A stretch of 64,000 bases of DNA from Gammaproteobacteria bacterium (GTDB lineage Bacteria; Pseudomonadota; Gammaproteobacteria; Ga0077536), in the NCBI GenBank assembly GCA_965223085.1, contig OZ244981.1, positions 182,747 through 246,746 on the forward strand, in the 5' to 3' direction. The stretch's first letter is position 1. Each line of letters opens with the position of its first letter. The position numbers and the translations under genes were made by a program. Below the pieces are notes generated by a model that did not search any database, was not told the DNA's origin, and saw nothing but the letters and a program-made list of their open reading frames with translations. Positions 13,229-43,963 of the stretch are shown one piece after another.

Positions 13229-13341
13229 CCAGACGGGCACGGCGCAGTTTCGGTTTCTAGTGTGTGAATTATCATTTTCCTCCGCTCGGGTTCCATCGTT
13301 ATAGTTACAGTAGTGCTTAGCTAAATTACCCAATAACCGCA

Positions 13342-15834: not shown

Positions 15835-15931
15835 TTTTGCACATCACCCTCCGACCGTATTGGGCGCCACTTGAACCCATGTTCGCGCAATTTGGTGTAT
15901 CTTTATTGTAGGCTTAACAAGCGCATTCCAC

Positions 15932-17449: not shown

Positions 17450-17464
17450 CCCGGTAATCATCGC

Positions 17465-18313: not shown

Positions 18314-18316
18314 GTC

Positions 18317-19488: not shown

Positions 19489-19508
19489 GCGACGAGGCGG
19501 TAGTTGCG

Positions 19509-27882: not shown

Positions 27883-28590
27883 ATTTGTCTTTACGCTCAA
27901 ATAATACGGCCGCTATCTGGTCGGGGAAATACGAGTTACGAACTGCTACTCCGGTTAACAGATGGCGATGAAATCATTGCCCCCAGCATTTTTTTAGCTG
28001 CAACGGAACGATACAACTTAATGCCAAAGCTCAATCGTTGGGTCGTACACTCTGCTTTTCAGCATTTCAAGGAAAATCCTGATTTTCTTGCAGTCAATTT
28101 CCGTTCAATGAATCTATCGGGTCAGTCCGTGGTCGAACCCGAATTCTTGGATTACATGATTACCCAATTCGGTGAATTCGATATTGATCCATCGAAAATT
28201 TGTTTTGAATTAACTGAAACAGCCGCCATATCCAACTTGGGTAGGGCTATTAAGCTCATTTCCACACTGAAGGGTTTCGGTTGCTCGTTTTCTTTAGACG
28301 ATTTCGGCAGCGGTTTTTCGTCTTTTGCATATTTGAAAAACTTACCGGTCGATTATCTAAAAATAGACGGTCTATTTGTGCGCGACATATTAGAAGATCC
28401 GGTCGATTTAGCGATGGTGAAATGCATCAAAGAGATCAGCCAACTGACGGGCATGAAAACTATCGCCGAGTTCGTGGAAAACGAAGAAATCAGAGACGCG
28501 CTCAAAAGCATGGGGATTGACGATGTCCAAGGGTATGGAGTCGGCAGACCCGCACTCTCAACGCGGCTCTTGCACGATCGCGTAGCCTAG
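27883..28590 (+). CDS. EAL-domain (c-di-GMP phosphodiesterase) protein with no conventional start codon. It may be a remnant of a truncated or frameshifted gene
   Basis: The full EAL core (YELLLRL, ELTE, DDFGSG, EFVENEE) reads in frame from just after a TAA at 27880. The first in-frame ATG/GTG/TTG is the ATG at 28021, which lies inside the domain. GAGGAG sits at 27872. Confidence 0.5.
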   Translation: MCLYAQIIRPLSGRGNTSYELLLRLTDGDEIIAPSIFLAATERYNLMPKLNRWVVHSAFQHFKENPDFLAVNFRSMNLSGQSVVEPEFLDYMITQFGEFDIDPSKICFELTETAAISNLGRAIKLISTLKGFGCSFSLDDFGSGFSSFAYLKNLPVDYLKIDGLFVRDILEDPVDLAMVKCIKEISQLTGMKTIAEFVENEEIRDALKSMGIDDVQGYGVGRPALSTRLLHDRVA

Positions 28591-28712: not shown

Positions 28713-28937
28713 TTAGTGCGCTAAGGTGCAGTCTTCCACTTGGATGGCGCCGGCTGGGCAGTTGTGCGCGGCTTGCTTGGCGGCCTCGACCTCGGCACCT
28801 TCAGCCTCGTCTTTGACAAGCACTACGGTGCCATCCGAATCGTCTTGATCAAAAATTTCTGGGGCTGCTAACACGCAGTTGCCGGATGCAATGCATCGCT
28901 TGCGATCGACGTGGATAATCGTGTTGGAGCGTGACAT
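28713..28937 (-). CDS. 3Fe-4S/4Fe-4S-type ferredoxin (P450 redox partner)
   Basis: 74 aa with a CIASGNC...CP cysteine pattern. Lies immediately 3' of a P450 gene. Confidence 0.8.
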   Translation of the reverse strand: MSRSNTIIHVDRKRCIASGNCVLAAPEIFDQDDSDGTVVLVKDEAEGAEVEAAKQAAHNCPAGAIQVEDCTLAH

Positions 28938-28940
28938 CGT

Positions 28941-30146
28941 TTACCACCGAACAGGCATCGCATAGATGCCATAGATCTGACTATCGTCTTTGAATCGTAT
29001 CTCGATCACCGGCACGGCGAGTTCAAGCGTCGGGATGCGCTGGAACAAAGCAGGAAAAACGGTGCGCAGTTCGAAACGGGCGAGCATTTGACCGAGACAT
29101 TGGTGAATACCATAACCAAATGCGCAGTGATTGCCCGCATTGCGCCGGACGTCGAAGCGATCGGGATCCTGAAACATCGTCGGATCGCGATTAGCAGCCG
29201 GTGTAAGTCCGAACACGCCCTCTCCTTTTTTGATCACGATCCCGTCGATCTCCACATCTTCGAGTGCCACCCGTCGCGGTGCAAATTGAACGGGGCTTAA
29301 ATAGCGCAGCAATTCTTCGACAGCAGCGTCGATCAGGGACCAGTCGTGGCGCAATGCGGTGAGTTGAGCAGGCGTTTGCAATAACAGCAAGGTGCCGAGC
29401 GCAATCATATTCGCGGTCGTATCGTGACCCGCGCGCAGCAACATAGCGCCGATGTGCGCGAATTCCTCCACCGAGAGCTTGCCGGGTTTGACGTATTCAT
29501 CGACGATCCGAGAGATCATATCGTTACCGGGTCGCCGTATTTTTTTTGCGATGAGTTGGGCCGCGTATTCGACCAGGGCTTGCGCACTAGTGCGGGCTTG
29601 CTCGGGCGTTTGCGAAAGGCCGTGTCGTCCGGCGGCACAAGCCATAATGAACTCGTGATCCTCGTAAGGAGAACCGAATAGATCGCACATCACCAATGCG
29701 GGAAACTTTTGCGCGAGAGCCGTGATGAAATCGACGGGAGGTGAACATGACAACATGTCGTCGATAAGCTCGTTTGTGATTTGCTCAATGCGCGGCTTTA
29801 ACGCCAACATGCGTTTAACCGTGAATTCACCGCTTAACATGCGTCGGTAATGATCATGTTGCGGATTATCCATGCCGACGAAGGCTCTCTCCTGCTTATC
29901 TATAGCAACGCGAGCCTCCGTCACCGCTGGAAAATCAGCGCGACCGAACTCGCCACTAAAGCGAGGATCGAGCACAACTGCCCGCAGGTGGCCATAGCGG
30001 GTCAACAAGTACGCACGCCGACCGTCCCACAACGTAACCGGGAAAATCGGTCGTGATTCGCGCGCTCGTGCGTACAACAACGGTGGATCGAAAGCGCGCT
30101 CCCGCTTAAACGGGAACTGCGGGGCATCGGGTAGAGATTTACTCAT
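28941..30146 (-). CDS. Cytochrome P450
   Basis: FGYGIHQCLGQMLARFE heme loop; EELLRY. Confidence 0.88.
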   Translation of the reverse strand: MSKSLPDAPQFPFKRERAFDPPLLYARARESRPIFPVTLWDGRRAYLLTRYGHLRAVVLDPRFSGEFGRADFPAVTEARVAIDKQERAFVGMDNPQHDHYRRMLSGEFTVKRMLALKPRIEQITNELIDDMLSCSPPVDFITALAQKFPALVMCDLFGSPYEDHEFIMACAAGRHGLSQTPEQARTSAQALVEYAAQLIAKKIRRPGNDMISRIVDEYVKPGKLSVEEFAHIGAMLLRAGHDTTANMIALGTLLLLQTPAQLTALRHDWSLIDAAVEELLRYLSPVQFAPRRVALEDVEIDGIVIKKGEGVFGLTPAANRDPTMFQDPDRFDVRRNAGNHCAFGYGIHQCLGQMLARFELRTVFPALFQRIPTLELAVPVIEIRFKDDSQIYGIYAMPVRW

Positions 30147-30176
30147 GTGCTAACACGTAGTCGCTGGCCTGCGGCA

Positions 30177-30929
30177 CTACCAATTACCGCTGATGGTAGC
30201 GCCGCCGTCAACAACGACAGACTGGCCCGTGACGTAACTCGCCGCTGGTGACAACAGGAAGCCGACAACTTCGGCAACTTCCCGCGGTTCGCCTAAGCGT
30301 GCCAGGGGGATGGCGTTGTGCAGCGCAGTGAGCTCGGAACGGCCTGTCGCGATGTTTTCGCGAACCAGGCGCGTATTGATGAACCCCGGCACGACCGCAT
30401 TGACCCGGATCCCCGCGGGGGCCCACTCCACCGCGAGGCTACGCGTCAGCGATTCGATCGCGCCCTTGGCGGCGGAGTAAGCGCCACGCTGCACACGGCC
30501 GACGCGTGCGGCGATCGAGGAGAAATTGACCACCGCACCGCGACCGACTTGCAACAGCGGGAAACTCGCGCGACACAAGCGCACTACGCCGCCGACGTGA
30601 ACGTCGATCAGCGCCCGCCATACATCATCATCTATCTCCGCAACAGCTTGGTGATGATTATATCCCGCGGTGTTGACGAGTGCGTCGAGACGCCCGTGCT
30701 TATCGCGCACACGGTTAATGACCGTATCAACCGCTGCCGTATCGGTAACATCCAAGGCAATGCGGACATGTTCGAAGTCGGCATCTTCGCTAGCATCGCG
30801 TGCAAGGTCTAGATCACCGACGATCACGTGCCAACCCGCAACATGCAGGGTTTTCGCAACGGCCAAACCAATACCGCGCGCGCCACCGGTAATCAACGCT
30901 ACTGGTTCACTTTCGGATTCGACATCCAT
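30177..30929 (-). CDS. SDR-family oxidoreductase
   Basis: TGGARGIG; YSAAK catalytic motif. Confidence 0.8.
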   Translation of the reverse strand: MDVESESEPVALITGGARGIGLAVAKTLHVAGWHVIVGDLDLARDASEDADFEHVRIALDVTDTAAVDTVINRVRDKHGRLDALVNTAGYNHHQAVAEIDDDVWRALIDVHVGGVVRLCRASFPLLQVGRGAVVNFSSIAARVGRVQRGAYSAAKGAIESLTRSLAVEWAPAGIRVNAVVPGFINTRLVRENIATGRSELTALHNAIPLARLGEPREVAEVVGFLLSPAASYVTGQSVVVDGGATISGNW

Positions 30930-30968
30930 AGCATGGGCTTCAAATCTACAAATAGTTTATCCTAAACT

Positions 30969-31922
30969 GTGGCGTTATTACCGCAAATCTTGCGACTGTC
31001 ATACGTTGGAAAAACGTTCATCGTGAACATTCAGGGAGGCGATGGCATGCAACTGGACCATGGGATCGGGGTGCGCGAAGACGATTTGCCTTGGGTAGAC
31101 ATCGGCGTACGACCCGGCTACAAACAACGCTATCAAGGTTTTTTCGACCGATCGCGATACATCGCTGCCCGCATCGGGAGTCTTTACGCAGAGCCCTATT
31201 ATCACTCGCCGCGTCACCGTCACACTTTTCAACAGGTGCGCTATGTCTACGGCGGTAAAATGAAATATGGCGACGAAATTTACGGCGTCGGTGACTGTTT
31301 GTATATTCCCGAAGGTGCGTATTACGGGCCGATTAAGCCGGTCGACGACGGCACGGAAGAGCAATTACATTTTGTTGATATCCAACTAGAAGGACCGAGT
31401 GGCATTCCTTACCCCGATCCGGACGTCGTCGTTAACGCCCAGCGCGAGTTGGCGGAGAGCGGCTCCTTCGAAGAAGGGGTGTATACGTTTGCGGACGGAC
31501 ACAAACGGGATGCATACGAAGCGATCCTGGAAAAAATCACCGGCGAGCCTATCAGCTACCCAGCCGCGCGCTTGAGCGACTATGTCGTGATGCGCTCCCA
31601 CGCTTATCCTTATGTCAAACACCCGCAGCTAGCGGGCGTCACGCAGAAGCACTTGGGTTGCTTTTTCGAATGCGGACCCAACTTGAAAGTGATTGCGATC
31701 GCCGCAGATCAGACCCTTGCCGCTGCCCGCCCGGATGGACACCGCGCCGTGTTTCTGCTCAAAGGTGCCGTAGAATTCAACGGTCAGCACTTCACACCGC
31801 TGTCGTATTTTATGCTGCCCCACGATGAACCCTATGCCGCCTTCCAAGCTCGAGACGACAGCGAGATGCTGGTGATCGCATGGACGTATCGCGGGCATAC
31901 GATTCCTTTCGAACTCTTCTGA
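30969..31922 (+). CDS. Cupin-domain protein (probably a bicupin)
   Basis: Cupin-like His/Glu-rich beta-barrel motifs. The start may be ATG 31046. Confidence 0.5.
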   Translation: MALLPQILRLSYVGKTFIVNIQGGDGMQLDHGIGVREDDLPWVDIGVRPGYKQRYQGFFDRSRYIAARIGSLYAEPYYHSPRHRHTFQQVRYVYGGKMKYGDEIYGVGDCLYIPEGAYYGPIKPVDDGTEEQLHFVDIQLEGPSGIPYPDPDVVVNAQRELAESGSFEEGVYTFADGHKRDAYEAILEKITGEPISYPAARLSDYVVMRSHAYPYVKHPQLAGVTQKHLGCFFECGPNLKVIAIAADQTLAAARPDGHRAVFLLKGAVEFNGQHFTPLSYFMLPHDEPYAAFQARDDSEMLVIAWTYRGHTIPFELF

Positions 31923-31934
31923 TTTTTCGACGCT

Positions 31935-32888
31935 ATGCGCCTCGCCACGATACGCCTGCCCGACAGCGGTGAACTTCGCTACGCGGTAGTGAGCGGTGAT
32001 GAAGTGATCGATCTCGACGCTGCTGACGCGCGGTTGAATCTTTCCGGACTACCGCGCCGATCTGTAGTTCCCCGCAACCACCATGACTGGTTCACGACCG
32101 CCGGCCGAAGTCGCGCGCAAATGCTCCTCGAACGTGCCAGCGAAGCGCGTGCTGCTGCGGGCGTGTGGTACCGCCGCGATGAGGTCACATTTGGACCTCC
32201 CATTCGACAGCCACGAAAATTCATTGCGGCGGGGCGCAATTATGCCGATCACGTACGCGAAAGTCAGCGCATTTGGGCCGCGCGCGGCAAAGAGGTGGCA
32301 CGCGCCGCGCGCCCAACCGCGTTCGCGAAATTTGCTTCGAGCATTGTTGGTCCCCACGAACCTATTCGCCTTCCCGTCGGCGTAAACAGCGTGGATTATG
32401 AAGTCGAGCTCGCCGTCATCATCGGCGCTCCCGCCCATGACGTAGACGTCTCGGAAGCACTAGAGTTTGTAGCGGGCTACACAATCTGCAACGATATCGG
32501 CGCCCGCGACATCCAGCGCTTCGAGATGGAACATCAAATTGGCATCGTCATGGCTAAGAATTTTCCGACTTTTGCACCGCTCGGACCGTGGCTCGTGACA
32601 AGCGATGAAATTCCCGATCCACAAATCCTGCGCATCGGCCTGGAAGTAAACGGCGAACCACGCCAAGACGCAAACACTGCAGATATGATTTTTTCAGTAG
32701 CTGAACTCATCGCGTATTGGTCGCGTCTGGGGCTCGAACCCGGCGATATAATTACCACCGGGACCCCGGCCGGGGTTGCGCTGGCGCGTTCGGAACCGGA
32801 GGTTTTTTATCTCAAACCCGGCGATACTGTGCGAGCTTTCATCGAAGGTATCGGCGCGTTAGTTAATCCCGTTTCGCGTTCCTCATAA
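31935..32888 (+). CDS. Fumarylacetoacetate-hydrolase family protein
   Basis: FAH-domain motifs (GRNYADHVRE, ELAVIIG, ITTGTPAGV). Confidence 0.8.
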   Translation: MRLATIRLPDSGELRYAVVSGDEVIDLDAADARLNLSGLPRRSVVPRNHHDWFTTAGRSRAQMLLERASEARAAAGVWYRRDEVTFGPPIRQPRKFIAAGRNYADHVRESQRIWAARGKEVARAARPTAFAKFASSIVGPHEPIRLPVGVNSVDYEVELAVIIGAPAHDVDVSEALEFVAGYTICNDIGARDIQRFEMEHQIGIVMAKNFPTFAPLGPWLVTSDEIPDPQILRIGLEVNGEPRQDANTADMIFSVAELIAYWSRLGLEPGDIITTGTPAGVALARSEPEVFYLKPGDTVRAFIEGIGALVNPVSRSS

Positions 32889-32902
32889 ATAGCAACTACG
32901 TA

Positions 32903-34021
32903 ATGAATAGCCGCGCCACCAACCAAGCACCTTTGTTCGGTGAGAACCGCCTGAAGCTCGGAGTGTTTTCCGCCAACGTCAGCGGAGGCGGTACGATGAC
33001 TACGGCAGCAGACGCCCTCACCTTGGATTGGTCACAGACGCTTAAGATTCATCAAGAAGCAGACCGGTTGGGCTTTGAAGTTCTGATCCCGGTTGCGCGT
33101 TGGCGCAGCTTTGGTGGGCCAAGCGACTTCAACGCGAACGCCTTCGAAACCTATTCGTGGGCGGCGGGGGTCGGTCAGGCGACCCAGCGTGTGGCGTGTG
33201 TCGCCACCTCGCACGTCACCACCGTGCATCCCTTGTTCGCGGCCAAGCAAGCTACGACTATCGACCACATCACCGGCGGGCGCTTTGCGCTTAACATCGT
33301 TTGCGGATGGTACAAAGAAGAGCTCGAGATGTTCGGCGGCAACATCATGGAGCACGATCTGCGTTACGATTACGCAGCGGAATGGGTCGAGCTGGTCAAA
33401 CGATTTTGGACGAGTGAAGAGGAATTCGATTTTGATGGCCGCTTCTTTTCAATACGTAGGGGAGTAGCGCGGCCGCGACCAATTCAGCAGCCGCGGCCAC
33501 CGCTGATCAATGCCGGCGGTTCACCGCGCGGCCGGCGGTTCGCAACCGAACATTGTGACGTAGCGTTCGTGCCGGTCGATCAGGAGGATCTCGGCGCCGC
33601 CGCAACCCATGTGAAAGCGTATCGCGAGATGGCACGCAAGGAATTCAACCGCCACCTCGACGTCTGGGCGATCGCCTACGTCATACAGCGGGATACCCAG
33701 CGTGAGGCGGAGGATTACCTCAACTATTATGCCGTCGAACACGGCGACGACGTCGCGGTCGAAAACTGTCTGGGCACGCTAGGCGTGCAATCGCAAATGT
33801 ACACGGCGGAACAATACGAGCGCCTCAAATTTCATTTGAAAGCAGGGTATTTCGGCTACCCGCTCGTCGGAACGAAGGAGCGCATCGTCGATGAAATAAC
33901 CCGCCTGTCGGCTATCGGCATTGACGGCCTCGCCCTCGTGTGGTGTGACTACTACGATGGCTTAAAGCGCTGGGGCCAAGATATTATGCCGCTACTACAG
34001 GAAGTCGATTTGCGCGCCTAG
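32903..34021 (+). CDS. LLM-class flavin-dependent monooxygenase
   Basis: 372 aa, SsuD/bacterial-luciferase-like. Confidence 0.75.
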   Translation: MNSRATNQAPLFGENRLKLGVFSANVSGGGTMTTAADALTLDWSQTLKIHQEADRLGFEVLIPVARWRSFGGPSDFNANAFETYSWAAGVGQATQRVACVATSHVTTVHPLFAAKQATTIDHITGGRFALNIVCGWYKEELEMFGGNIMEHDLRYDYAAEWVELVKRFWTSEEEFDFDGRFFSIRRGVARPRPIQQPRPPLINAGGSPRGRRFATEHCDVAFVPVDQEDLGAAATHVKAYREMARKEFNRHLDVWAIAYVIQRDTQREAEDYLNYYAVEHGDDVAVENCLGTLGVQSQMYTAEQYERLKFHLKAGYFGYPLVGTKERIVDEITRLSAIGIDGLALVWCDYYDGLKRWGQDIMPLLQEVDLRA

Positions 34022-34038
34022 GCGCCGATTCAGATGCA

Positions 34039-34455
34039 CTAAGCAACACTTTCTCGGTCGGCAAGATCACGGATTTGCTGCACGATTTCTGCAGCATCCG
34101 ATCCCGGACCGAAGGTCGCAGCAACGCCTTTGTTTTTGATTTCGTTTTTATCGTCTTGGCTAAGCACCGAACCCCCAACGACCACTGGGATGTCAAGAGC
34201 ACGGCTTTTTAGCAACTCGAACAGCTCATCAAGATAGTACAGATATTCCCAGGAATGACACGAGAGGCCGATCACGTCCACGCCTTCCTCCAAGGCGGAA
34301 TCGACGATCATTTCCGGCGTTCCAAAGCGGCCAAGATATATCACTTCCATGCCCGCATCGCGCAGCATTCGCGCCACCGCAAATGCGCCTGCCTCGTGTT
34401 GGTCCAGACCTAAAATTGCGAGCAGAATACGAACCGGCCGATCCATGGTATTCAT
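34039..34455 (-). CDS. Acyl-CoA mutase small subunit (cobalamin-binding domain)
   Basis: DxHxxG B12-binding motif (LDQHEAG), ...GLSCHS..., VVVGG. 138 aa. Fits the size of IcmB/HcmB-type subunits. Confidence 0.8.
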   Translation of the reverse strand: MNTMDRPVRILLAILGLDQHEAGAFAVARMLRDAGMEVIYLGRFGTPEMIVDSALEEGVDVIGLSCHSWEYLYYLDELFELLKSRALDIPVVVGGSVLSQDDKNEIKNKGVAATFGPGSDAAEIVQQIRDLADRESVA

Positions 34456-34479
34456 GCTTGGGTGTTCATAGCGGCGCGA

Positions 34480-36099
34480 TCACACCGGCGGCGCCATGTG
34501 ACCTAGCGGGTCATAGGGTGCCCCCACGCCGAGGCGCAAGGCACCAGCGATTTCTCCTTGGGTCAATTCGGCTTCCAACGCATCAGCGATGGGCACGATC
34601 AAATTGGCATCATCACGCTCGCCCAGCTCCTGAATACGGGCAAAATGTTCCGCCACAGCGACCCGGTCACGCCCGTCCTTGAATGCGCGGATCTCGTCGA
34701 TGCGCTGCCAGCATGGCGCTATTTTCGATTCGCTGTGATCGCGCAGCAGCGTGTCTTCCTCAGCTGGGATTTGAAACGCATTCACACCCACCTGAATTTC
34801 GCTGCCGTTTTGAATCCCATCGGCACGCCGGGTCATGGCATTCTGAAACAGTTCGCGAAACCAACCACTATCGCAGACATCTTTTAATGTGCCCATCGAT
34901 TCGATTTCGTTGATCATCGCGTCGATGCGCTGCTCCATCTCTGCGGTCAACGACTCGACGAAATACGACCCCCCAAGTGGATCGGCAACCCGATCGGCAC
35001 CGGCTTCGAGCTGCACGATTTGCTGTGTCCGCAAACTCACCAAGTGCGATTCGTGGCTCGGGGTACGATACGCTTCGTCAAAACACGAAATTTCGACTGC
35101 CTGCACCCCAGCAAGTGCGAGCGCAAGCCCCTGTATCGCACCGCGTGCAACGTTGTTGATCGGTTGCGCCATTGTCAGCGAAAGACCCGAGGTATGCGCG
35201 GTAATTGCGCACGACCAAGCGCGCGGATCTTTGGCACCAAATTCTTCCCTCATCATGCGCGCAAAAATACGTCGCGTCGCACGAATTTTTGCGATCTCCT
35301 CAAATAAATCCATTCTGCAATTGACCAGGATCGCAATGCGCGGCGCGAACGCATCGATATCGACACCGCGTTCGATCAGTTTTCGGACAATTTCCCTGAT
35401 CTCCACAAAGCCAAGCGCCATTTCTTCAACGGCGTTAAGGCCACCATCGCTGATGTAATACGTATCCTCCAAGAACGCATGAAAACGCGGCATCTCGGTG
35501 GCTGCGAACTCGATCGAATCGAGCGCCAAGCGCATGCGCAAATCATAAGGCATGTGAATTTGATAGCTGCAATCTTCACAATATGCGGGTAACAAGATGG
35601 TCGAGCCGCGCAACTCGCTGGGATCGAAGCCACGCCGTTGTGCGACGCGGTGATAAGCAGCGACGGTATAAGCGCCGGGCGGTAAGGAATGCGAAAAAGT
35701 GAGTTCGTTCAGCGGCAAGTCGGCATAGAGCTCTTCGAAATCTTGGAAACGGCAGATCGATACTCCGGTATTGCCGACGGCATGTCGCGCCAGCGGGTGA
35801 TCCGGATCCATCGCGGACATCGTGGGTGCATCGCCGATCACATCGAGGCCGCGGGCGCCTTTTTCGATTAATTGGCGAAATTGTTCGTTAGAACGGCGTG
35901 CGGTACCCTCGCCCGATAGCTCCTGTTGGATCCACGTATCGCGACGCCGGGGACTCGCCAGCCGCCCCCGCGTAAACGGATATTCACCTGGGTCAGCGAG
36001 CCACCCCTGCGCGTGCTCCGCGTCTGCCGTGGGAATATCGGCCGGGGTATAAAAAGCATGCAGCGGAAGGCCGGATTGCGTAGTACGATCAGACATCAT
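34480..36099 (-). CDS. Acyl-CoA mutase large (substrate-binding TIM-barrel) subunit, non-MCM type
   Basis: Collinear with the MCM N-domain (GEYPFTRG..., ...HTSG...). The residues aligned with the MCM carboxylate-binding Tyr89/Arg207 appear to be Gln/Ser, but my alignment is by eye. True start is ATG 36099 (MMSDRTT); the 681-aa track ORF is over-extended. Confidence 0.75.
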   Translation of the reverse strand: MMSDRTTQSGLPLHAFYTPADIPTADAEHAQGWLADPGEYPFTRGRLASPRRRDTWIQQELSGEGTARRSNEQFRQLIEKGARGLDVIGDAPTMSAMDPDHPLARHAVGNTGVSICRFQDFEELYADLPLNELTFSHSLPPGAYTVAAYHRVAQRRGFDPSELRGSTILLPAYCEDCSYQIHMPYDLRMRLALDSIEFAATEMPRFHAFLEDTYYISDGGLNAVEEMALGFVEIREIVRKLIERGVDIDAFAPRIAILVNCRMDLFEEIAKIRATRRIFARMMREEFGAKDPRAWSCAITAHTSGLSLTMAQPINNVARGAIQGLALALAGVQAVEISCFDEAYRTPSHESHLVSLRTQQIVQLEAGADRVADPLGGSYFVESLTAEMEQRIDAMINEIESMGTLKDVCDSGWFRELFQNAMTRRADGIQNGSEIQVGVNAFQIPAEEDTLLRDHSESKIAPCWQRIDEIRAFKDGRDRVAVAEHFARIQELGERDDANLIVPIADALEAELTQGEIAGALRLGVGAPYDPLGHMAPPV

Positions 36100-36169
36100 G
36101 TATGAATAGTAACATCGCCACGAAAGAATTTGGCGCGCCGCGTCTCGCAAGCCGCTTGCTGCGCTACCC

Positions 36170-37138
36170 ATGAACGACGAGCAAGCGCGCCGGGTACTGC
36201 AAGGGGAACGCGTTGCGGTTGCCACAGCTTTGAACCTCATCGATGCACGCAACGCGCAACGGCGCGCACGCGCCTTGCCATTGCTACAGGCGCTCGAGAA
36301 TGCGAACAGCACCGCGGTTGCCGTCCGCATCGGCCTCACCGGCGCACCTGGCTGCGGTAAATCAACCCTCATCGACGCCTTGATCGGCGAAATTCGCCAC
36401 CGCGGCGAGACCGTGGGGGTCATTGCCGTCGACCCATCGAGCCGCGATAGCGGTGGTGCGCTACTAGCCGACCGTGTTCGCGCCCAGCACCGCAGCAAGG
36501 ACGAGGGGGTTTTTTTTCGTTCCATGGCCGCACGCGATCGGCTCGGCGGGCTGGCAGCGGCTAGCCGCTCGGCGGTTACGGTTTTGTCCGCCGCGTTCGA
36601 CTGGGTGATCGTCGAATCCGTCGGCGTCGGTCAATCCGAAGTCGAGATCGCCGACTTGGTCGATACGCTGATCTACGTCGCGCAACCAGGTGCCGGCGAT
36701 GTACTGCAATATATGAAAGCTGGACTGCTGGAATTACCCGATATTTTTGTCGTCAACAAAGCCGACCTCGGCCCGGCCGCGCAACTGACGGAGAAGGAAT
36801 TGCGCCGCGGCCTGGCCCTCGAGGCCTCGAACGATGCGACCTGGCAAGCGCCGGTATTGCTCGCTGCGGCCAGCGAGAGCCGCGGCATTGGTGCGCTGGT
36901 CGACGCGATCATCCGCCACCGCACAACGTCCAGCCACGAAGAGCGACTCGCGAACCGCCGCCGTGACCGCATCCGCTATCTATTTTCCGAACTTGCTGAT
37001 CGTTACGGTTCTTTTGGTTTCGAGGCCCTGGGCGGACCCGCGACGGTACGCAAAATGCTCACCGACGCGGTCGATCGATCCGAAGTCGAAGTGTTAGAAG
37101 ATCTCAGTAAGCGCATCGAAACCGCATTGCGCCAATAA
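36170..37138 (+). CDS. meaB: MeaB/ArgK-type G-protein chaperone for B12 mutases
   Basis: P-loop GLTGAPGCGKST and NKAD motifs. Divergent from the mutase genes. Confidence 0.85.
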   Translation: MNDEQARRVLQGERVAVATALNLIDARNAQRRARALPLLQALENANSTAVAVRIGLTGAPGCGKSTLIDALIGEIRHRGETVGVIAVDPSSRDSGGALLADRVRAQHRSKDEGVFFRSMAARDRLGGLAAASRSAVTVLSAAFDWVIVESVGVGQSEVEIADLVDTLIYVAQPGAGDVLQYMKAGLLELPDIFVVNKADLGPAAQLTEKELRRGLALEASNDATWQAPVLLAAASESRGIGALVDAIIRHRTTSSHEERLANRRRDRIRYLFSELADRYGSFGFEALGGPATVRKMLTDAVDRSEVEVLEDLSKRIETALRQ

Positions 37139-37171
37139 CTCCGGTGACTAGCAGTCTATCGGACTTAAGGA

Positions 37172-37948
37172 TCACACGATCGTCCAGCCACCGTCGACGA
37201 CTAAGGTGTGACCCGTGATCATGCTCGCCGCGCTTGAAGCTAAGAAAATTACCGGCGCGGATATTTCCTCGGCTTCAGCAAAATCACCACGCAGCAGGTT
37301 ATTTGTTTTCATCGCCGCGGCGAACGCCGGGTTATCGCGCACCGCCACCTCCGCCAAAGGCGAACGTGTCACGGTGGGCGCAACGGCATTCACACGAAGG
37401 CCAAATTCTGCCCACTCCGCGGCCAAGGTGCGCGTGAGATTGTTAACCCCACCTTTAGCCCCGCTGTATGGTGCCCGCAATGGTGCCCCGACAACACCCG
37501 CTTGCGATGAAATATTGACGATGCTACCGCCGTCGCCTTGTGCGATCATTTGCCGCGCGGCATATTGACTGCAAAAAAACACACTTTTCAAATTTACCCC
37601 GATCAGATGATCGAATAACTCCTCGTCACACTCGAGCGCGGGGCCCAAGGTATTATCACCGGCGTTGTTAACGAACACGTCGATACGCCCATAGTGGACA
37701 GTAACCTCGTCGATAAAACGCTGAATAGACACCACGTTCGTGACATCGAGTGAGTGGTAAAAACAACGCCGCCCGAGACCTTGAATTTCTGTTGCGAGCG
37801 CCTCGAGTTCCGCTGTTGTGCGACTACCAACGGCTACGCGAGCGCCCGATCGGGCTGCATCAAGCGCGATCGCACGCCCGATGCCTCTGCCAGCACCGGT
37901 GACGACAAATACCCTGTCTTCTAAGCCGAAGCATTCGAGCTGTGGCAC
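37172..37948 (-). CDS. SDR-family oxidoreductase
   Basis: TGAGRGIG; YSGAK. Confidence 0.8.
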   Translation of the reverse strand: MPQLECFGLEDRVFVVTGAGRGIGRAIALDAARSGARVAVGSRTTAELEALATEIQGLGRRCFYHSLDVTNVVSIQRFIDEVTVHYGRIDVFVNNAGDNTLGPALECDEELFDHLIGVNLKSVFFCSQYAARQMIAQGDGGSIVNISSQAGVVGAPLRAPYSGAKGGVNNLTRTLAAEWAEFGLRVNAVAPTVTRSPLAEVAVRDNPAFAAAMKTNNLLRGDFAEAEEISAPVIFLASSAASMITGHTLVVDGGWTIV

Positions 37949-38047: not shown

Positions 38048-41000
38048 TCAGGCCTTCACGCGAAACAATGTCGCGTAAAGCACCGGCACCAGCAGCAACG
38101 TCAACGCCGTTCCAAACGCCAAACCCGCCATAATTGTAACCGCGAGCCCCATCCAAAATTGATCTTGCAACAGCGGGATAACACCAAGCACAGTCGTCGC
38201 GGCAGCGAGCACAACAGGACGCGCCCGAGAGACTGCGGCATCGAGGATCGCATCGTAGCGGTTCTCGCCTGCAGCGAGATAACTGTCGGTTTGATCAAGC
38301 AAGACGACCGCATTTTTGATCATCATGCCGACTAAACTCATCGCGCCCAGCAACGCCAAAAATCCAAACGGCGCGCCAGTAGCTAGCAAACCGACCGTAA
38401 TGCCGATCACCGCGAATGGAATCGACAACGCGATGACCAACGGCGGTCGATAAGCGTTGAACAACGCTACGATAATAAACGCGATGATCGTCATGGCAGG
38501 AATGACACCTGGGATCAGTGACAATTGCGAATCGCGGGCACTTTCATACTCCCCGCCCCATTCCATGACATAAGCTTCTGGCAACGAGATATTTTCAAAT
38601 CCTGCGAGCACCGAACGCCGCAGTTCCGGCAAAGTAACGCCGTCGCGCGGATTGGCCTGCACGGTAATCGTTCGACGGCGGTCACGACGCCATACGATCG
38701 GATCTTCCCACACCATTTCGATGGCGTCGCTCACTTGACCTAGCGGCACGACGTGCCCGCTCGCACTTGCCTCCACTTGCAGCGCGAGCAAACCGCCGAT
38801 GGAGCGCCGTTCCGTTTCGTTATAGCGCAACAGGATCGGAATTAATTCGTCACTCTCGCGATACAAACCGACCACGCGCCCATCAAAGGCGCGTTTGGTC
38901 GTGTTTGCCACATCCGCACGGGTTACGCCTGCCCAGCGACCACGCTGCTCATTGTAGCGCGGCACAATAATTTTCGTGCGTTGGCGCCAATCGGTGGTGT
39001 AATCGCCGACCAAGGATGCGCGACGCAGAATATCAGTTCCCGCTGCCGCCGTGGCGCGCAACACCTTGGGGTCCGCAACCGCCGGCCCGCTAATGCGCAC
39101 TTCAAACTTCCACGTATTGCTGGGGCCTACGCCATATTTCCGTAGCGGGATTTGGGCATCGGGAAATTGTTCCAGCAACCACGGCCCAAGGTCGGCAATG
39201 ATGTCATCGATCGCGCCGACATCGCGCACATTGACGATAAACTGGCCATACGCTGCGTTGTGCGGCTCGGGCTCGATAGGCAAATAAAAGCGTGGCGGCC
39301 CGGCACCAACAAACGTCGCCACGTTCTCCACGCGCGTATCTTGCAAGAGGCGTTTTTCGATGCGCTGCATTTCTGCACTCGTGACACCGATTTGGGTGCC
39401 CTCGGGAGCCCAATAGTCGATCATGAACTTAGTCATCGAAGATGCCGGGAAAAAAAGCTGCTTTACTTGACTAAAACCCGCCAATGATGCCAACAATAAA
39501 GTAACCGCCGCGATGCAAGTGAAACCGCGTTTGCCGATCGCGCGCTGGAGAACACGGCGAAACGCCCGTAGCATCGGCGTAGCGTGCGGGTCATCCGTCG
39601 TACCGCCACTGGGATCCGGGATCAAATCGAGGCACTGTACCGGTGTCACCGTGATAGACACGATCCAGGAAAGCAGTAAAGAAATAGCCACGACGCTGAA
39701 TAATGAGGCGCAGTATTCACCCGCATTTTCCTGCGAGGCGGCGATTGGATAGAACGCCATCACCGCGACAACGGTAGCACCCAACAAGGGGATCGCGGGT
39801 TGCGATGCGGCCTCGATGGCAGCCTGTCTGCGCCCCACGCCACGGCGAAGACGTACGATAAAACCGTCGGCGACGACAATTGCGTTGTCGACCATCATAC
39901 CGAGCGCGATGATCAGCGCGCCTAAGGACATGCGCTGCAAATCGATCCCGAACAACGCCATGAGGGTAAATGTTCCGAAAATCGTCACGATCAACGCGCT
40001 GCCGACGATCAAAGACAACCTCCACCCCATGCCAATCGTCAGCACGATGACAACGATTACCACCGCTTCTGCGAAACTCACGAGAAACCCATTGACCGCG
40101 TCACGAATAACGTCGGATTGCCAATGAACACGCCGCAATTCGATTCCGACCGGCAACTCCGCTTCCAACTGGCGCAAGCGAGCGGCTACTTGTTGCCCCA
40201 TTTCGACGACGTTGGCGCCCGGCACATTGCTGATAGAGATCGCGAGCGCTGTTTGACCGTTGAAACGCATAATCGTTTCGGCTGGCTCGGCGTAACCACG
40301 CCTCACTTCCGCGACATCGCGTATACGTATTAATTCGCTGCGAGGTGAACCCAAGGCTGGCCGACTTGAGTTCGGTGCGACTCGAATGATCAAGTTAGCA
40401 ACATCTTCCGTGGATGCGAATTCCCCACTGGGCGCAAAACGCAATCGTTGCCGCTGCAGATCTACACTACCTGCGTCGTTAACTAAGTTTTGATGGCTGA
40501 GCGTGCGTTGCAACGTGTGCTCATCCGCACCTAGTTGCGTAGCGAGAGATTCCGAGACATCGATATAGATAACTTCGTCCTGTGCTCCCCACAGATCGAC
40601 TTTCGATACCCCTTTCAGCAAGGTGATTTCTTTTTTGATGCGCTTAGCATAAGACTCGAGTTCAGCATACGAAAAACCATCGCTCACTAACGCGATTACG
40701 TGCCCATAAACGTCGCCAAAATCGTCGTTGACCAAAGACTGCCCGGCCCCCGGAGGCAACGATGGCTGCGTGTCGGCCACCTGGCGCCGTAGCTCGTCCC
40801 AAACTTGGGGTAATGTATCGGTTCTTACAGTCGGTTTGATGTTGGCCCAAATGAGCGACATGCCGGCCGTTGATTTTGAACGCACAAAATCGAGTGCCTT
40901 GAGCTGCTGCACGGCAAGTTCCAGTCTATCGGTGACTTCTAATTCGACTTCCGTAGGGCTCGCGCCCGGATAAGGTGTCGCGATAACCGCAGTCTTAATC

Positions 41001-41122
41001 GTGAAGTCCGGGTCTTCCAACTGCCCCAGCACAAAATAGCTTGCGATCCCTGCGAGCATCACTAACGCCGTTCCGAAGTACGTGACTTTTTTTTGTGCGA
41101 TAGCTACTGCGGCGATACCCAC
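38048..41122 (-). CDS. RND efflux transporter permease (AcrB/HAE family)
   Basis: 1024 aa, 12-TM RND architecture. Confidence 0.9.
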   Translation of the reverse strand: MGIAAVAIAQKKVTYFGTALVMLAGIASYFVLGQLEDPDFTIKTAVIATPYPGASPTEVELEVTDRLELAVQQLKALDFVRSKSTAGMSLIWANIKPTVRTDTLPQVWDELRRQVADTQPSLPPGAGQSLVNDDFGDVYGHVIALVSDGFSYAELESYAKRIKKEITLLKGVSKVDLWGAQDEVIYIDVSESLATQLGADEHTLQRTLSHQNLVNDAGSVDLQRQRLRFAPSGEFASTEDVANLIIRVAPNSSRPALGSPRSELIRIRDVAEVRRGYAEPAETIMRFNGQTALAISISNVPGANVVEMGQQVAARLRQLEAELPVGIELRRVHWQSDVIRDAVNGFLVSFAEAVVIVVIVLTIGMGWRLSLIVGSALIVTIFGTFTLMALFGIDLQRMSLGALIIALGMMVDNAIVVADGFIVRLRRGVGRRQAAIEAASQPAIPLLGATVVAVMAFYPIAASQENAGEYCASLFSVVAISLLLSWIVSITVTPVQCLDLIPDPSGGTTDDPHATPMLRAFRRVLQRAIGKRGFTCIAAVTLLLASLAGFSQVKQLFFPASSMTKFMIDYWAPEGTQIGVTSAEMQRIEKRLLQDTRVENVATFVGAGPPRFYLPIEPEPHNAAYGQFIVNVRDVGAIDDIIADLGPWLLEQFPDAQIPLRKYGVGPSNTWKFEVRISGPAVADPKVLRATAAAGTDILRRASLVGDYTTDWRQRTKIIVPRYNEQRGRWAGVTRADVANTTKRAFDGRVVGLYRESDELIPILLRYNETERRSIGGLLALQVEASASGHVVPLGQVSDAIEMVWEDPIVWRRDRRRTITVQANPRDGVTLPELRRSVLAGFENISLPEAYVMEWGGEYESARDSQLSLIPGVIPAMTIIAFIIVALFNAYRPPLVIALSIPFAVIGITVGLLATGAPFGFLALLGAMSLVGMMIKNAVVLLDQTDSYLAAGENRYDAILDAAVSRARPVVLAAATTVLGVIPLLQDQFWMGLAVTIMAGLAFGTALTLLLVPVLYATLFRVKA

Positions 41123-41139
41123 AAACGAGTTTCCATGTC

Positions 41140-42249
41140 TTAGCGCTTAGCTTCACGCAATAAGCGCACTGATTGCCCTTCCGCAAGGTAGTGAACACCA
41201 GCGGTTACGATCCAGTCTCCTGGTGTTAGCCCAGAGGTAACGCCGATGCCGAGGTTCGTCGGCATGCCGGTCGAGATCTTGCGCTTCTTTACCGTGTTTG
41301 ACTCGCCATCAATCAACCACACAAAGGTATCGTCACCGAGCGCGAAAGTTGCTGATGCCGGCACTACGATCGCCCCCTGCATGCTCGCAACGACCTCTTT
41401 GGGCGGTTCCCCGTGTGCGCGCCCCGACATACCGGGCAATACTTTAAAATCTTGCGGTTGATCCATGCGCAATGTCACTGGATAAGTACGTGTAAGATCA
41501 GATGCTTCCGAGCTTATTTCGATAATTTCTGCCGGGATTTCGCGGTCCGGGAATGCATCAAAAATTGCGCGCACGTTAGTAACATGCGGCGCCATGGAGA
41601 TGAGATTTTCGGGAACGTTAACGACCATCTCTATGCGCGAATCATCAACTAAGCGTGCGACGGCTTGTTTGGCCCGTACGTCTTCGAAGTTCTCCACATA
41701 AATCGCCACCACTGAACCGGAGAAAGGCGCTTTCAGCTTCGTATAAGACAGCTGATCACGCGCCGCAGTCAAAGAAGCCTGCAGCGAGGTTATATTTGCA
41801 CGCGCTCGGTCCCGTGCTTCACGGGCACGATCGATCGCGGTTTCACTCGTCGCACCCGGATCTTGGCGAAAAATATTTTGCTGTCGCTTAAGGTCGTTCT
41901 CCGCGCGAGTAAGTGCTGCTTTTGCTTCGTCTAGTTGACCGCGGACATTACGGACCTTGACTTGATAATCGCGCGGATCTATTTGCGCTAACACGTCACC
42001 TTGTTGAACCACGTCACCGACTTGAATTGGCAGGGTTATCAAGGGCCCTGAAACACGAAAAGACAACTCTACTTCTTGAACTGCTCTGGCGACGCCTGGG
42101 AAGGCACGTCCCTCGAAATTCTTTTCCGTTGCGATCTGCATGGCTTTCACCGGCCGGTTCTGCAATTTTTCCGGTGGCGGCGCTTCCGAGCAGGCCGCAA
42201 CCAATAACGCCGCGAGGCTGCCAACAATCTTCACCTTCACCTTTGCCAT
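41140..42249 (-). CDS. RND efflux periplasmic adaptor (membrane fusion protein), lipoprotein
   Basis: Lipobox LLVAAC; coiled-coil; barrel-sandwich hybrid motifs. The start is set at MAKVKV. Confidence 0.8.
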   Translation of the reverse strand: MAKVKVKIVGSLAALLVAACSEAPPPEKLQNRPVKAMQIATEKNFEGRAFPGVARAVQEVELSFRVSGPLITLPIQVGDVVQQGDVLAQIDPRDYQVKVRNVRGQLDEAKAALTRAENDLKRQQNIFRQDPGATSETAIDRAREARDRARANITSLQASLTAARDQLSYTKLKAPFSGSVVAIYVENFEDVRAKQAVARLVDDSRIEMVVNVPENLISMAPHVTNVRAIFDAFPDREIPAEIIEISSEASDLTRTYPVTLRMDQPQDFKVLPGMSGRAHGEPPKEVVASMQGAIVVPASATFALGDDTFVWLIDGESNTVKKRKISTGMPTNLGIGVTSGLTPGDWIVTAGVHYLAEGQSVRLLREAKR

Positions 42250-42259
42250 CCTATATTTA

Positions 42260-43825
42260 CTACCAAGCCGGGCGACGGCGTTGATCCGTTTGCAGATCGG
42301 ATGGTTCGAGCTCGAGCAGCTCACCCCAATCCGTGCGCGTGCCCATTTCATGCTTAAGCGTCGCCGGTAATAATTCCCTGCTCGTGCTTGCCTGCCAACC
42401 GCCGCCGAGTGCTTTGTAGGTGCTGATCAAATCACGGACAACTTTGCCCTGTGCGGCGGTGTAACTATCTTGTTGGCCGAGTAGAAAAGCCTGTGTATCG
42501 AGCACGCGCGTGTAATCGACTGCACCGTCGCGATACTGGACAAGGGCTAGCTCGACCGAGCGACGTGCCGCCGCCACGCTCTCTTTGAGGATTGCAACAC
42601 GTTGTTTGCCGCGCACAAAACTATATAAGGCGTTTTCCACCTCACGTGCAGCCTGCAGGAGGCTATCCTGGTAGGCCACAATCGCTTGTTGGAAACGCGC
42701 GTCCGCGACTCTGGCGGCGTTTTTGATGCGCCCGTAATTTAAAATATTCCAGCGGAACGACGGGCCGACGCCAGCCGCAAAATTGTCGCTGTCAAATAGA
42801 TCTGCCAGATCATTGCTAAGCACATCGTTTGCTTGCAACCCAAGATTTGCGGTTAAAGAGAACTGTGGATAGAGATCCGCCAACGCGACGCCGATCAGGG
42901 CACACTGGGCTGCAGCGCGCCGCTCCGCACGCCGCACATCGGGTCGCCTAAGCAATAGTTCGGCCGGCATTCCGAGTGCGACCGACGCTGGAGCGACAGG
43001 AATCATGCCGTTACCCGATGCCAAAGACGCTAATTCCCCGGGTACGGACCCGAGCAAAATACTGAGCGCGTTGCGCGCCTGTCGCAAACCGATTTCCAAA
43101 CTCGGGATCGATGCCGCCGTGTTTGCTAACAAGGTTCTTGCTTGTTCGACATCGAGCCCAGAGGTTACGCCGTTTTCGAATCTTACCGTGGCAATTTTTA
43201 GGCTGCGCTTTTGAATATTCATATTCTCATGCGCAATCGCTAAGCGCGCTTCGAATGTGCGCATTGAAACATAGCTGTTGGCAACCTCGGCCACTAAGCT
43301 CACCAAAGCGTCATCATAACCTGCGACTTCGGCCATTAATGTTGCGTCAGCCGCTTCTACACCCCGTCGCAAACGACCCCAGACATCGATCTCCCAGGCG
43401 GCGTCGAAGCCGACGCTTACGTCGCGTAAAGAAGATCCCACGATGGGATTGAAATTCGGATCACTAGCAGCCAATCTACGCTGGGCAAGGCCACCGCGTA
43501 GACGCTGTAATTGCGGATATTGATTGCCGACCGCAATGGCTAGCTGCGCGCGAGCTTCAAAAATTCGCAAGCTCGCTACGCGCAAAGATAAATTCTGCGC
43601 GGCGGCACGCTCGACCAGATTGCTGAGCACATCATCGTCAAGCACCGTCCACCATTGCGCGATGTCTCGCGAGGTGGTGTTAACATCCATATCCGCAAGC
43701 GGACGCCAGTCTTCGGCCAGCGGAGCGGAAGGTGTCTCGAAATCCGGCCCCAGCATCGTGCATCCGCTAGCCAACATGACGAGCAAAACGAAGCGCGGAG
43801 TCCGGATAGTGCACCAGGCGCTCAC
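42260..43825 (-). CDS. RND efflux outer-membrane factor (NodT/OprM family lipoprotein)
   Basis: Lipobox MLASGC; two OEP repeats. Confidence 0.85.
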   Translation of the reverse strand: MSAWCTIRTPRFVLLVMLASGCTMLGPDFETPSAPLAEDWRPLADMDVNTTSRDIAQWWTVLDDDVLSNLVERAAAQNLSLRVASLRIFEARAQLAIAVGNQYPQLQRLRGGLAQRRLAASDPNFNPIVGSSLRDVSVGFDAAWEIDVWGRLRRGVEAADATLMAEVAGYDDALVSLVAEVANSYVSMRTFEARLAIAHENMNIQKRSLKIATVRFENGVTSGLDVEQARTLLANTAASIPSLEIGLRQARNALSILLGSVPGELASLASGNGMIPVAPASVALGMPAELLLRRPDVRRAERRAAAQCALIGVALADLYPQFSLTANLGLQANDVLSNDLADLFDSDNFAAGVGPSFRWNILNYGRIKNAARVADARFQQAIVAYQDSLLQAAREVENALYSFVRGKQRVAILKESVAAARRSVELALVQYRDGAVDYTRVLDTQAFLLGQQDSYTAAQGKVVRDLISTYKALGGGWQASTSRELLPATLKHEMGTRTDWGELLELEPSDLQTDQRRRPAW

Positions 43826-43963
43826 CGCGTTTGTGCCCAGGGCTTGAGGTAACGCGCTTTTTCACTGCTTTCATTGCTCGGCGGTAATCTCCCCATGAGC
43901 CAAATAACATCCCACGGGTTCACTACCATGGCCCTGACTGGGTCGGACGCGGTGCAAGCGGTT

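Follow-up and report, generated by a model that had tools for sequence, protein, structure and literature searches.

Few specificities of adenosylcobalamin (AdoCbl)-dependent acyl-CoA mutases have been described, namely those of methylmalonyl-CoA mutase (MCM), ethylmalonyl-CoA mutase (ECM), isobutyryl-CoA mutase (ICM), pivalyl-CoA mutase (PCM) and the 2-hydroxyisobutyryl-CoA mutase type (HCM/RCM), and their uses include 2-hydroxyisobutyrate production and synthetic CO2-fixation modules (PMC11599936). Each of them opened a metabolic pathway or a biotechnological route. In the current study we analysed a 64,000-nt stretch of a gammaproteobacterial genome (GenBank assembly GCA_965223085.1, contig OZ244981.1; hereafter the window, whose numbering is used for all coordinates), which encodes a split mutase of this superfamily together with a MeaB-type chaperone in an interval of ten genes and about 9.2 kb (28713-37948; Table 1). 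Judged from sequence, the interval probably comprises two independently inherited modules that abut one another: an oxidative module A with a short-chain dehydrogenase/reductase (SDR1), a CYP105-like P450, a ferredoxin, a cupin-like protein, an FAH-family enzyme and a luciferase-like monooxygenase (LLM), and an AdoCbl-dependent acyl-CoA mutase cassette that belongs to an orphan clade.

The closest described system is HcmAB of Aquincola tertiaricarbonis (4R3U), which likewise has separate large and small subunits and a MeaB-type chaperone and lacks the carboxylate-binding arginine. It is the top solved relative of the large subunit of the window and the second one, behind 2YXB, of its small subunit. 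The partners that recur across the clade of the window enzyme, a CoA ligase and an SDR resembling 3-hydroxyacyl-CoA dehydrogenases, are a further likeness, whereas the large subunits are only 30% identical, the pockets differ (see below) and the window contains no hcl-type ligase. In the ketone route of sulfate reducers the mutase is followed by a FabG-annotated 3-hydroxybutyryl-CoA dehydrogenase, with MeaB, and in Desulfococcus biacutus, Desulfosarcina cetonica and Kyrpidia tusciae the mutase gene is located beside that of a FabG-annotated SDR oxidising the 3-hydroxyacyl-CoA product, again with MeaB (PMC7176365, PMC7888143). RCM and HCM operons include hcl and meaH (PMC7176365), and the RcmAB-like system of D. 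cetonica is characterised by a 64.7-kDa large subunit, an SDR-MeaB-small-large cluster and a nearby thiamine diphosphate (ThDP) enzyme (PMC7888143). The pairing of SDR and mutase is also the commonest context of the clade studied here, which is set apart from the RcmAB-like type, on the level of description, by the order SDR-large-small, large subunits of about 535-545 aa, the rarity of MeaB and the lack of a conserved ThDP-enzyme neighbour; neither the hcl-meaH operon pattern nor the SDR-MeaB-small-large/ThDP cluster was seen in the clade loci.

The MCMs of P. shermanii (1REQ) and human (2XIJ) share with the window enzyme a full-length barrel, cobalamin binding via DxHxxG and a MeaB/MMAA chaperone, but they are only 27-29% identical to it, and the B12 domain of the window enzyme resides on a separate polypeptide. 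ICM and IcmF (4XC6) resemble it in a hydrophobic residue at the position of Tyr89, and the ICM substrate is non-carboxylated; IcmF differs in a barrel that can be aligned in part only, and the window enzyme has neither a Gln at the Arg207 equivalent nor His244. The large subunit of Xanthobacter PCM is fused to a G-protein, whereas the window has a separate meaB gene, a comparison made on the level of description only.

Pocket and phylogenetic position of the mutase

Residues 7-524 of the large subunit cover positions 1-509 of the 512 positions of PF01642 (MM_CoA_mutase), and the protein passes TIGR00641 (362 bits, cutoff 304). The small subunit passes TIGR00640 (95.5 bits, cutoff 57), and its base-off/His-on cobalamin motif DxHxxG can be read directly (D18-Q-H20-E-A-G23); MeaB exceeds the cutoff of TIGR00750 (254.5 vs. 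240.75 bits) and matches a MeaB structure at 4e-50. The hallmarks of the superfamily, i.e. the barrel domain, the DxHxxG cobalamin-binding domain and a dedicated MeaB/MMAA-type chaperone, are all present. The prediction of a functional cobalamin enzyme is well supported, because the domains are full length, DxHxxG is intact, a dedicated meaB gene lies adjacent and the DEA, RTQQ and DPLGGSY motifs common to active mutases are retained in the clade. The initial annotation had correctly recognised a mutase split into subunits of 539/540 and 138 aa with a MeaB partner. It had also taken the split as the mark of the ICM, HCM and PCM type, but this organisation is not diagnostic; the top PDB match of the small subunit is the standalone B12-binding subunit 2YXB (1e-25), ahead of HcmB (1e-23).

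On the family level, the large subunit passes generic NCBIfam domain models alone, with 305 bits against a cutoff of 876 for the MCM equivalog NF006944 and 129 against 1500 for that of IcmF. HcmA ranks first among its PDB matches (4e-84), followed by human MCM (6.5e-69) and the MCMs of M. tuberculosis and P. shermanii. With a clade profile the values are 2.6e-117 for HcmA and 3e-96 for MCM, and IcmF aligns along part of the barrel only (1.4e-29). The pocket was read under three alignments, i.e. phmmer, MAFFT (with chain sequences from the PDB alignments) and the clade profile, in P. shermanii numbering checked on Y89, F117, Q197, R207, Y243, H244 and Q330. The comparison covered MCM and HCM sequences, and IcmF along its aligned part, outside the His244 position.

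Tyr89 of MCM (W-T-I-R-Q-Y89-A-G-F-S) corresponds to Leu62 in the window protein and the clade (W-I-Q-Q-E61-L62-S-G-E-G). The Arg207 region, which reads F-M-V-R-N-T-Y in MCM and Y-M-A-Q-K-E-Y in HCM, is replaced by an invariant C-E176-D177-x-x-Y180 (CEDxxY), and the partner of Arg207 is D177 (phmmer), S179 (MAFFT) or Y180 (clade profile), but never Arg or Gln. At the position of HCM Asp117 (S-T-D117-F-D-M; S-V-A-F-D-L in MCM) the clade has Ile89 (D87-V-I89-G90-D91-A). The histidine of G-Y243-H244, kept by HcmA and the MCM references, is exchanged for Tyr216 (D-T-Y215-Y216; Tyr or Phe across the clade, Y-[YF]), and Gln330 (C-Q330-T-S-G; the Gln of HCQT in HCM) for His303 (A-H303-T-S-G). Invariant in the clade are E61, L62, D87, I89, G90, D91, E176, D177, Y180, Y215 and H303.

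The absence of the carboxylate-binding Tyr/Arg pair of MCM, which had been noted before, is borne out by all three independent alignments, with Leu62 in the place of Tyr89 and no Arg at or near Arg207. The signature of ICM is a Phe at the Tyr89 position and a Gln at the Arg207 position; the window protein has Leu62 and no Gln in any of the alignments. In HCM the corresponding role is played by Ile90, Asp117 and Gln208, of which Asp117 binds the substrate hydroxyl. Leu62 is a conservative exchange for Ile90, but Asp117 is replaced by Ile89 and no Gln corresponds to Gln208. The specificity residues hence indicate that the window enzyme is not of the MCM type, in agreement with the earlier proposal, whereas the tert-butyl or pivalate-like substrate suggested along with it finds no specific support in a pocket that matches neither ICM nor HCM.

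In a search of 5.8 billion proteins, the best 120 matches (56-100% identical) carry generic names only and stem almost all from metagenomes or metagenome-assembled genomes (MAGs). The alignment of 30 of those matches has a mean column identity of 66% and more than 100 invariant positions including the pocket residues. Clustering of a protein library at 50% identity leaves one full-length representative of the clade (1007 bits) and fragments, and the next full-length relatives are at most 40% identical (about 350 bits). Of the phylogeny formerly suggested for both subunits, the part on the large subunit was computed as a neighbour-joining tree with 127 sequences, of which 13 belong to the clade, about 110 represent the library and three are references. 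Here the clade members form a monophyletic group set off by the longest internal branch of the tree (0.155; median 0.012, 95th percentile 0.051), and HcmA and the MCMs are placed elsewhere, among sequences with canonical motifs.

A scan of one genome per species detected relatives of the query encoded at 373 loci, and in the best 80 of them the identity is 53-85%. These 80 loci are distributed over Desulfobacterota, Syntrophia, Methylomirabilota/Rokubacteria, Binatia, Chloroflexi, Myxococcota, Spirochaetales, Actinobacteria (including the cultured Actinoplanes subtropicus), Bacillota (Desulfotruncus alcoholivorax) and Alpha- and Gammaproteobacteria. The carriers are mostly uncultured, and the closest relatives of the mutase are found in marine or sediment MAGs of Gamma- and 'Delta'-proteobacteria. 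Searches of the available literature collection retrieved no paper describing this clade. Tree and scan place the window mutase in a widespread, sharply delimited, uncharacterised and monophyletic clade.

Beyond the clade, dozens of other metagenomic clusters of the 50%-identity library (P0130-P0275) carry non-canonical residues at the Y89, R207 and H244 positions, for example N-A-Y-N-L-R-E or N-M-Y-D-L-R-E instead of S-G-Y-H. These sequences suggest that mutase-like enzymes form a large radiation, still unexplored, of which the window protein would be one branch. Some genomes also carry several paralogues: locus L020 harbors a second large/small pair (10001-14211; 34-38% identical) tail to tail with the clade pair, and two clade copies (L009 and L026) are located about 300 kb apart on a single 1.14-Mb MAG contig of a 'delta proteobacterium'.

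Module A and the mutase cassette across genomes

Operon calls, based on strand and spacing alone, indicate that the ten genes form at least five transcription units in alternating orientation. SDR1, P450 and ferredoxin are separated by 30 and 3 bp and cupin, FAH and LLM by 12 and 14 bp. LLM and the mutase small subunit are convergent, with 17 bp between the LLM stop and the small-subunit gene. On the minus strand the large subunit lies upstream of the small one (gap 24 bp), and meaB diverges from it across a 70-bp intergenic region. Consensus promoter and terminator scans gave no more than shuffled sequence, and an Rfam scan of the whole window yielded no match of any kind and no cobalamin riboswitch.

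On the mutase side, the ten proteins were compared by tblastn with the 80 genome loci and all window open reading frames (ORFs) with 83 loci, i.e. the same 80 plus three contig look-ups (L081-L083). No ortholog of the P450, ferredoxin, cupin, FAH or LLM was detected by tblastn in any of the 83 mutase loci, including the relatives with 79-85% identity. The search recovers the large subunit, the small subunit and MeaB only. The small subunit directly follows the large one in 76 of the 80 loci; MeaB is present in five (L005-L007, L071, L078), and L005-L007, which are 79-82% identical relatives, also have the divergent meaB arrangement of the window.

For the reverse comparison, module-A loci were gathered by a cupin homologue search and contig look-up, and a metagenome scan with the cupin protein added one short locus only. 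The cupin family is 60-76% identical, has 289-293 aa and occurs in many Proteobacteria. In L085 both gene groups keep their order (SDR1 56%, P450 66%; cupin 72%, FAH 51%, LLM 74%), and the LLM holds the same position as in the window, without a mutase after it. L086 contains P450 (62%), SDR1 (57%), ferredoxin (40%), cupin (64%) and FAH (51%) plus a ferredoxin reductase, the 5.4-kb contig L084 ferredoxin, SDR1, an EthD-like segment, cupin and FAH, and the P0305 locus cupin-FAH-EthD and SDR-P450-ferredoxin. The orthologs are 50-74% identical across the four loci, except for the ferredoxin (40-42% in L084 and L086). In L084, L085 and L086, SDR1 (56-57%) keeps its position relative to P450 or ferredoxin and FAH (51-52%) directly follows the cupin, and the latter order holds in all four loci. 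No mutase or MeaB gene was found beside module A, neither within up to 10 kb on each side in L085, L086 and the P0305 locus nor on the 5.4-kb contig L084.

The combination of at least five transcription units and reciprocal non-co-occurrence indicates that module A and the mutase cassette are separately inherited units, which meet at the 17-bp junction between LLM and small subunit. Their physical juxtaposition is real, yet it is not recurrent across genomes. Separate operons, which the initial annotation had named as evidence against its own reading, are what was found as far as the sequence goes. The P450 of module A matches CYP105 structures (4e-96), with a gene for a small single-cluster ferredoxin 3 bp on, as in CYP105A1/P450-SU1; unlike that system, it belongs to a module conserved in Proteobacteria that also comprises the SDR, the 291-aa cupin-like protein, FAH and LLM.

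The EthD gene and two further P450s of the window, once thought to fit the theme of the mutase, do exist. EthD, however, travels with the cupin-FAH/P450 module in other genomes and not with mutases: in the P0305 locus it comes directly after FAH, and L084 has an EthD-like segment (2704-2877) flanked by SDR1 and cupin. In the window it is located 14 kb from module A. The tenth gene, SDR2, probably belongs to neither module. It is on the strand of the pump gene of the resistance-nodulation-division (RND) type, 99 bp downstream of it, and convergent with meaB. SDR2 was considered as the counterpart of the SDR upstream of the clade mutases and rejected: the identity of 27-42% corresponds to the general SDR level, it follows the pump gene, and it is missing from the MeaB-bearing relatives L005-L007.

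Clade neighbourhoods and the candidate reaction

All ORFs of the 80 loci were clustered and the representatives annotated. A FabG/acetoacetyl-CoA-reductase-like SDR is present within 5 kb in 44 of the 80 loci, and in at least 24 it lies directly upstream on the same strand. AMP-forming acyl-CoA ligases (30) and enoyl-CoA hydratases (26) are likewise frequent, and rarer neighbours are TetR regulators (10), SCP2-type thiolases (8), acyl-CoA dehydrogenases (7) and 3-hydroxyacyl-CoA dehydrogenases (5). The recurrent 295-aa hydratase belongs to the uncharacterised PRK12478 family. A cluster representative that scored as BadI/MenB-like had offered a lead towards alicyclic acids, which was abandoned; it is atypical and only 27-33% identical to the recurrent hydratase.

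The composition of the neighbourhood differs between subclades. The closest loci (L001-L003, 83-85%) comprise LLM, nitroreductase, thiolase, ligase, large subunit, small subunit and a convergent gene of the acetoacetate decarboxylase (ADC) family, which is also present in L082. In L006 and L007 (79-80%) meaB is co-oriented with the gene of an AtoE-type short-chain fatty acid transporter (spans 6938-9424 and 5181-7686, respectively) and divergent from the mutase; hypD follows the small subunit in both. The window copy of the cassette has lost this transporter or never had one. Actinobacterial loci (L062, L069, L072) are arranged as hydantoinase A, hydantoinase B, ligase, TetR, mutase and SDR, with the hydantoinases verified by Pfam on the representatives of L062 and L072, and in Chloroflexi an ADP-forming acyl-CoA synthetase follows the small subunit. 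The recurrence of hydantoinase A/B near clade mutases may reflect a functional connection with the metabolism of ketones or beta-keto acids. A hydantoinase B gene is also found in L081 (19615-21387), and the window itself harbors an acetone-carboxylase-like hydantoinase A/B pair 22 kb from the mutase.

The common denominator of these loci is the conversion of a free short organic acid into its CoA ester plus beta-hydroxy/beta-oxo chemistry, and the neighbours of the clade (SDR, ligase, hydratase, thiolase, AtoE, ADC, hydantoinase A/B) suggest a short hydroxy- or oxo-acyl-CoA substrate. In the scenario that we favour, module A would represent a conserved oxidative catabolic unit, with SDR1, P450 and ferredoxin on one strand and cupin, FAH and LLM on the other, and module B a self-contained cassette of large subunit, small subunit and divergent meaB. 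The mutase would move the CoA-thioester group by a 1,2 shift in a short acyl-CoA that is non-carboxylated and probably carries a hydroxy or oxo substituent. Like 2-hydroxyisobutyryl-CoA mutase, it would supply or draw on a ketone route or one that resembles beta-oxidation. Tyr216 and/or His303 may stand in for His244, and the invariant acidic residues may bind the polar substituent. It is a real possibility, which we put forward tentatively, that the clade embodies a sixth acyl-CoA mutase specificity for short hydroxy-, oxo- or possibly amino-acyl-CoA, with an acidic pocket (E61, D87, D91, E176, D177), without His244, and with a role in the metabolism of ketones or beta-hydroxy acids in many uncultured bacteria of soils, sediments and marine habitats. 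The clade offers a concrete lead towards a new carbon-skeleton rearrangement and a means of testing the necessity of His244. For annotation, its proteins should not be named methylmalonyl-CoA mutase, and contiguity inside a catabolic island should not be taken as evidence for a shared pathway.

Several points weigh against this scenario. The substrate is deduced from neighbourhoods that differ between subclades, and in the window no CoA ligase, hydratase or thiolase adjoins the mutase, which leaves meaB and a family III CoA-transferase at a distance of 25 kb as the sole clues. The residue equivalent to Arg207 depends on the alignment (D177, S179 or Y180), and the loss of His244 could signify a different chemistry rather than a simple substitution. 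RcmA, PCM, ECM and IcmA specificities are set apart indirectly and not by sequence comparison. Finally, the mutase might conceivably have been recruited to module A only recently, as non-conservation does not prove non-function in this genome.

The initial annotation had united all ten genes in a single pathway that starts with P450 hydroxylation of a tert-butyl, pivalate-like or isoprenoid substrate and proceeds through oxidation of the product by dehydrogenases to a rearrangement of its tertiary or quaternary skeleton by the mutase. HCM routes are indeed known to follow monooxygenase-initiated tert-butyl oxidation (PMC7176365), and the contiguity within 9.2 kb, the missing Tyr/Arg pair and the presence of EthD and additional P450s are compatible with such a pathway. 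It is nevertheless improbable in view of the at least five transcription units with LLM and small subunit convergent, the lack of any acyl-CoA ligase or transferase in the ten-gene interval (ORFs, Pfam), the association of EthD with cupin-FAH instead of mutases, and the distribution of the genes, with module-A orthologs in none of the 83 mutase loci and a mutase in none of the four module-A loci. Moreover, a cupin and an FAH enzyme are a classical pairing for aromatic ring cleavage and subsequent hydrolysis. The non-MCM-type enzyme of that annotation stands, but the integrated P450-mutase pathway does not. Somewhat more can be said for a function identical to that of HCM/RCM, i.e. the interconversion of 2-hydroxyisobutyryl-CoA (or a C5-C6 homologue) and a 3-hydroxyacyl-CoA in a differently built pocket. 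HcmA is the best solved relative with the single sequence as well as with the clade profile, and the FabG-like SDR, CoA ligase, thiolase, AtoE-type transporter, ADC and acetone-carboxylase-like hydantoinase A/B of the clade would suit this reaction. We regard it as unlikely given an identity to HcmA of 30% only, the replacement of Asp117, Gln208 and the GYH histidine, the absence of an adjacent PaaK-type hcl ligase, and a gene order and subunit length (about 540 aa) at variance with the SDR-MeaB-small-large cluster and the 64.7-kDa protein of D. cetonica (PMC7888143).

An ordinary MCM, ECM, ICM or PCM that merely looks divergent is a very remote alternative. The generic PF01642 and TIGR00641 matches, source annotations of relatives as methylmalonyl-CoA mutase and the hydrophobic character of Leu at the Y89/F80 position, which ICM and HCM share, could be quoted in its favour; the scores far below the NF006944 and IcmF cutoffs, the joint replacement of Tyr89, Arg207 and His244, and the grouping of library sequences with canonical F...Q / Y...R signatures with the MCM references, apart from the clade, contradict it. 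Least probable of all is a protein of this fold that is catalytically dead or no longer a mutase: although His244, which is important for MCM catalysis, and several canonical pocket residues are lost, the strong constraint on the clade including its new pocket residues, the DxHxxG small subunit encoded alongside in 76 of 80 loci, the dedicated MeaB of the window and the retained DEA, RTQQ and DPLGGSY motifs speak for a working enzyme.

Gene inventory and surroundings of the window

The ten genes are listed with their neighbours in Table 1, and all of them, as named in the initial annotation (P450/ferredoxin, SDRs, cupin, FAH, LLM, split mutase and MeaB), were found at the positions given there by ORF listing, Pfam and NCBIfam. 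The cupin start at 31047 is likely because the homologues have the same length as the resulting protein; no PDB relative of the cupin-like protein was found by sequence. Two Met codons are adjacent at the start of the large subunit, which has 540 aa when counted from the first and 539 from the second. The 681-aa ORF of the mechanical list is an upstream extension of it, and MSDRTTQ is the start in the database copy P0001 (exact 539-aa match) and in all relatives.

Table 1. Genes of the examined interval and further features of the window
Feature	Position	Strand	Length, best evidence and assignment
IS256/Mutator-family transposase	6941-8164	-	5e-127
ORF upstream of transposase	6418-6957	+	no Pfam match
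ORF downstream of transposase	8260-8745	+	no Pfam match
CoA-transferase, family III	9105-10262		nearest CoA-transferase to the mutase
Homoprotocatechuate-type meta-cleavage set	14959-20291		complete-looking
FAH/HpaG-like gene of this set	14959-15834	-	
P450	20359-21663		follows the meta-cleavage set
Truncated EAL gene	28021-28590		189 aa; EAL profile positions 60-236 only
Module A	28713-34021		ferredoxin to LLM
Ferredoxin, small [Fe-S], single-cluster	28713-28937	-	74 aa; Pfam Fer4_13 1.1e-14; module A
P450, CYP105-like	28941-30146	-	401 aa; Pfam p450; top PDB match P450-SU1/CYP105A1 4e-96; module A
SDR1	30177-30929	-	Pfam adh_short_C2 3.7e-63; leads the SDR1-P450-ferredoxin operon; module A
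Cupin-like protein	31047-31922 (ORF open from 30969)	+	291 aa; weak Cupin_7 match; divergent from SDR1; module A
FAH-family hydrolase/isomerase	31935-32888	+	Pfam FAA_hydrolase 4.2e-71; module A
LLM, SfnG-like	32903-34021	+	Pfam Bac_luciferase 3.3e-51; NCBIfam SfnG-like below cutoff; ends the cupin-FAH-LLM operon
Mutase cassette	34039-37138		small subunit to MeaB
Mutase small subunit, B12-binding	34039-34455	-	138 aa; Pfam B12-binding PF02310 2.6e-22; mutase cassette
Mutase large subunit, substrate-binding	34480-36099 (36102)	-	539/540 aa; PF01642 4e-126, full length; mutase cassette
MeaB G-protein chaperone	36170-37138	+	Pfam MeaB 3.6e-79; TIGR00750 above cutoff; mutase cassette
SDR2	37172-37948	-	Pfam adh_short 8.9e-55; convergent with meaB
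RND efflux operon and PQQ-dependent dehydrogenase	38048-45856		operon of three genes, then SDR2
RND pump gene, AcrB-like	38048-41122	-	
EthD gene	47995-48864		
P450	54830-56131		
Hydantoinase A/B pair	59030-63309		acetone-carboxylase-like

Taken together, the genes of the window form a catabolic island, with three P450s, five LLMs, two FAH genes and an hpa-type meta-cleavage cluster, together with a pyrroloquinoline quinone (PQQ) dehydrogenase, a carboxyltransferase, hydantoinase A/B and a TonB receptor. Because of this density of catabolic genes, the position of the mutase beside some oxidative module is unsurprising. The meta-cleavage set consists of the FAH/HpaG-like gene, an aldehyde dehydrogenase, a LigB-type extradiol dioxygenase, a CHMI isomerase, an unassigned 268-aa ORF and an HpcH/HpaI aldolase. 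The RND operon encodes an outer membrane factor, a membrane fusion protein and the AcrB-like pump, and a PQQ-dependent dehydrogenase with an N-terminal extension is located just beyond it on the same strand.

Two sites may bear traces of rearrangement. The transposase separates the housekeeping genes proB-obg-ispB from the catabolic island, and the two plus-strand ORFs on either side of it resemble the halves of one interrupted gene. The EAL gene just outside the ferredoxin end of module A is N-terminally truncated, without sensor or GGDEF domain, and may mark a rearrangement junction as a remnant.

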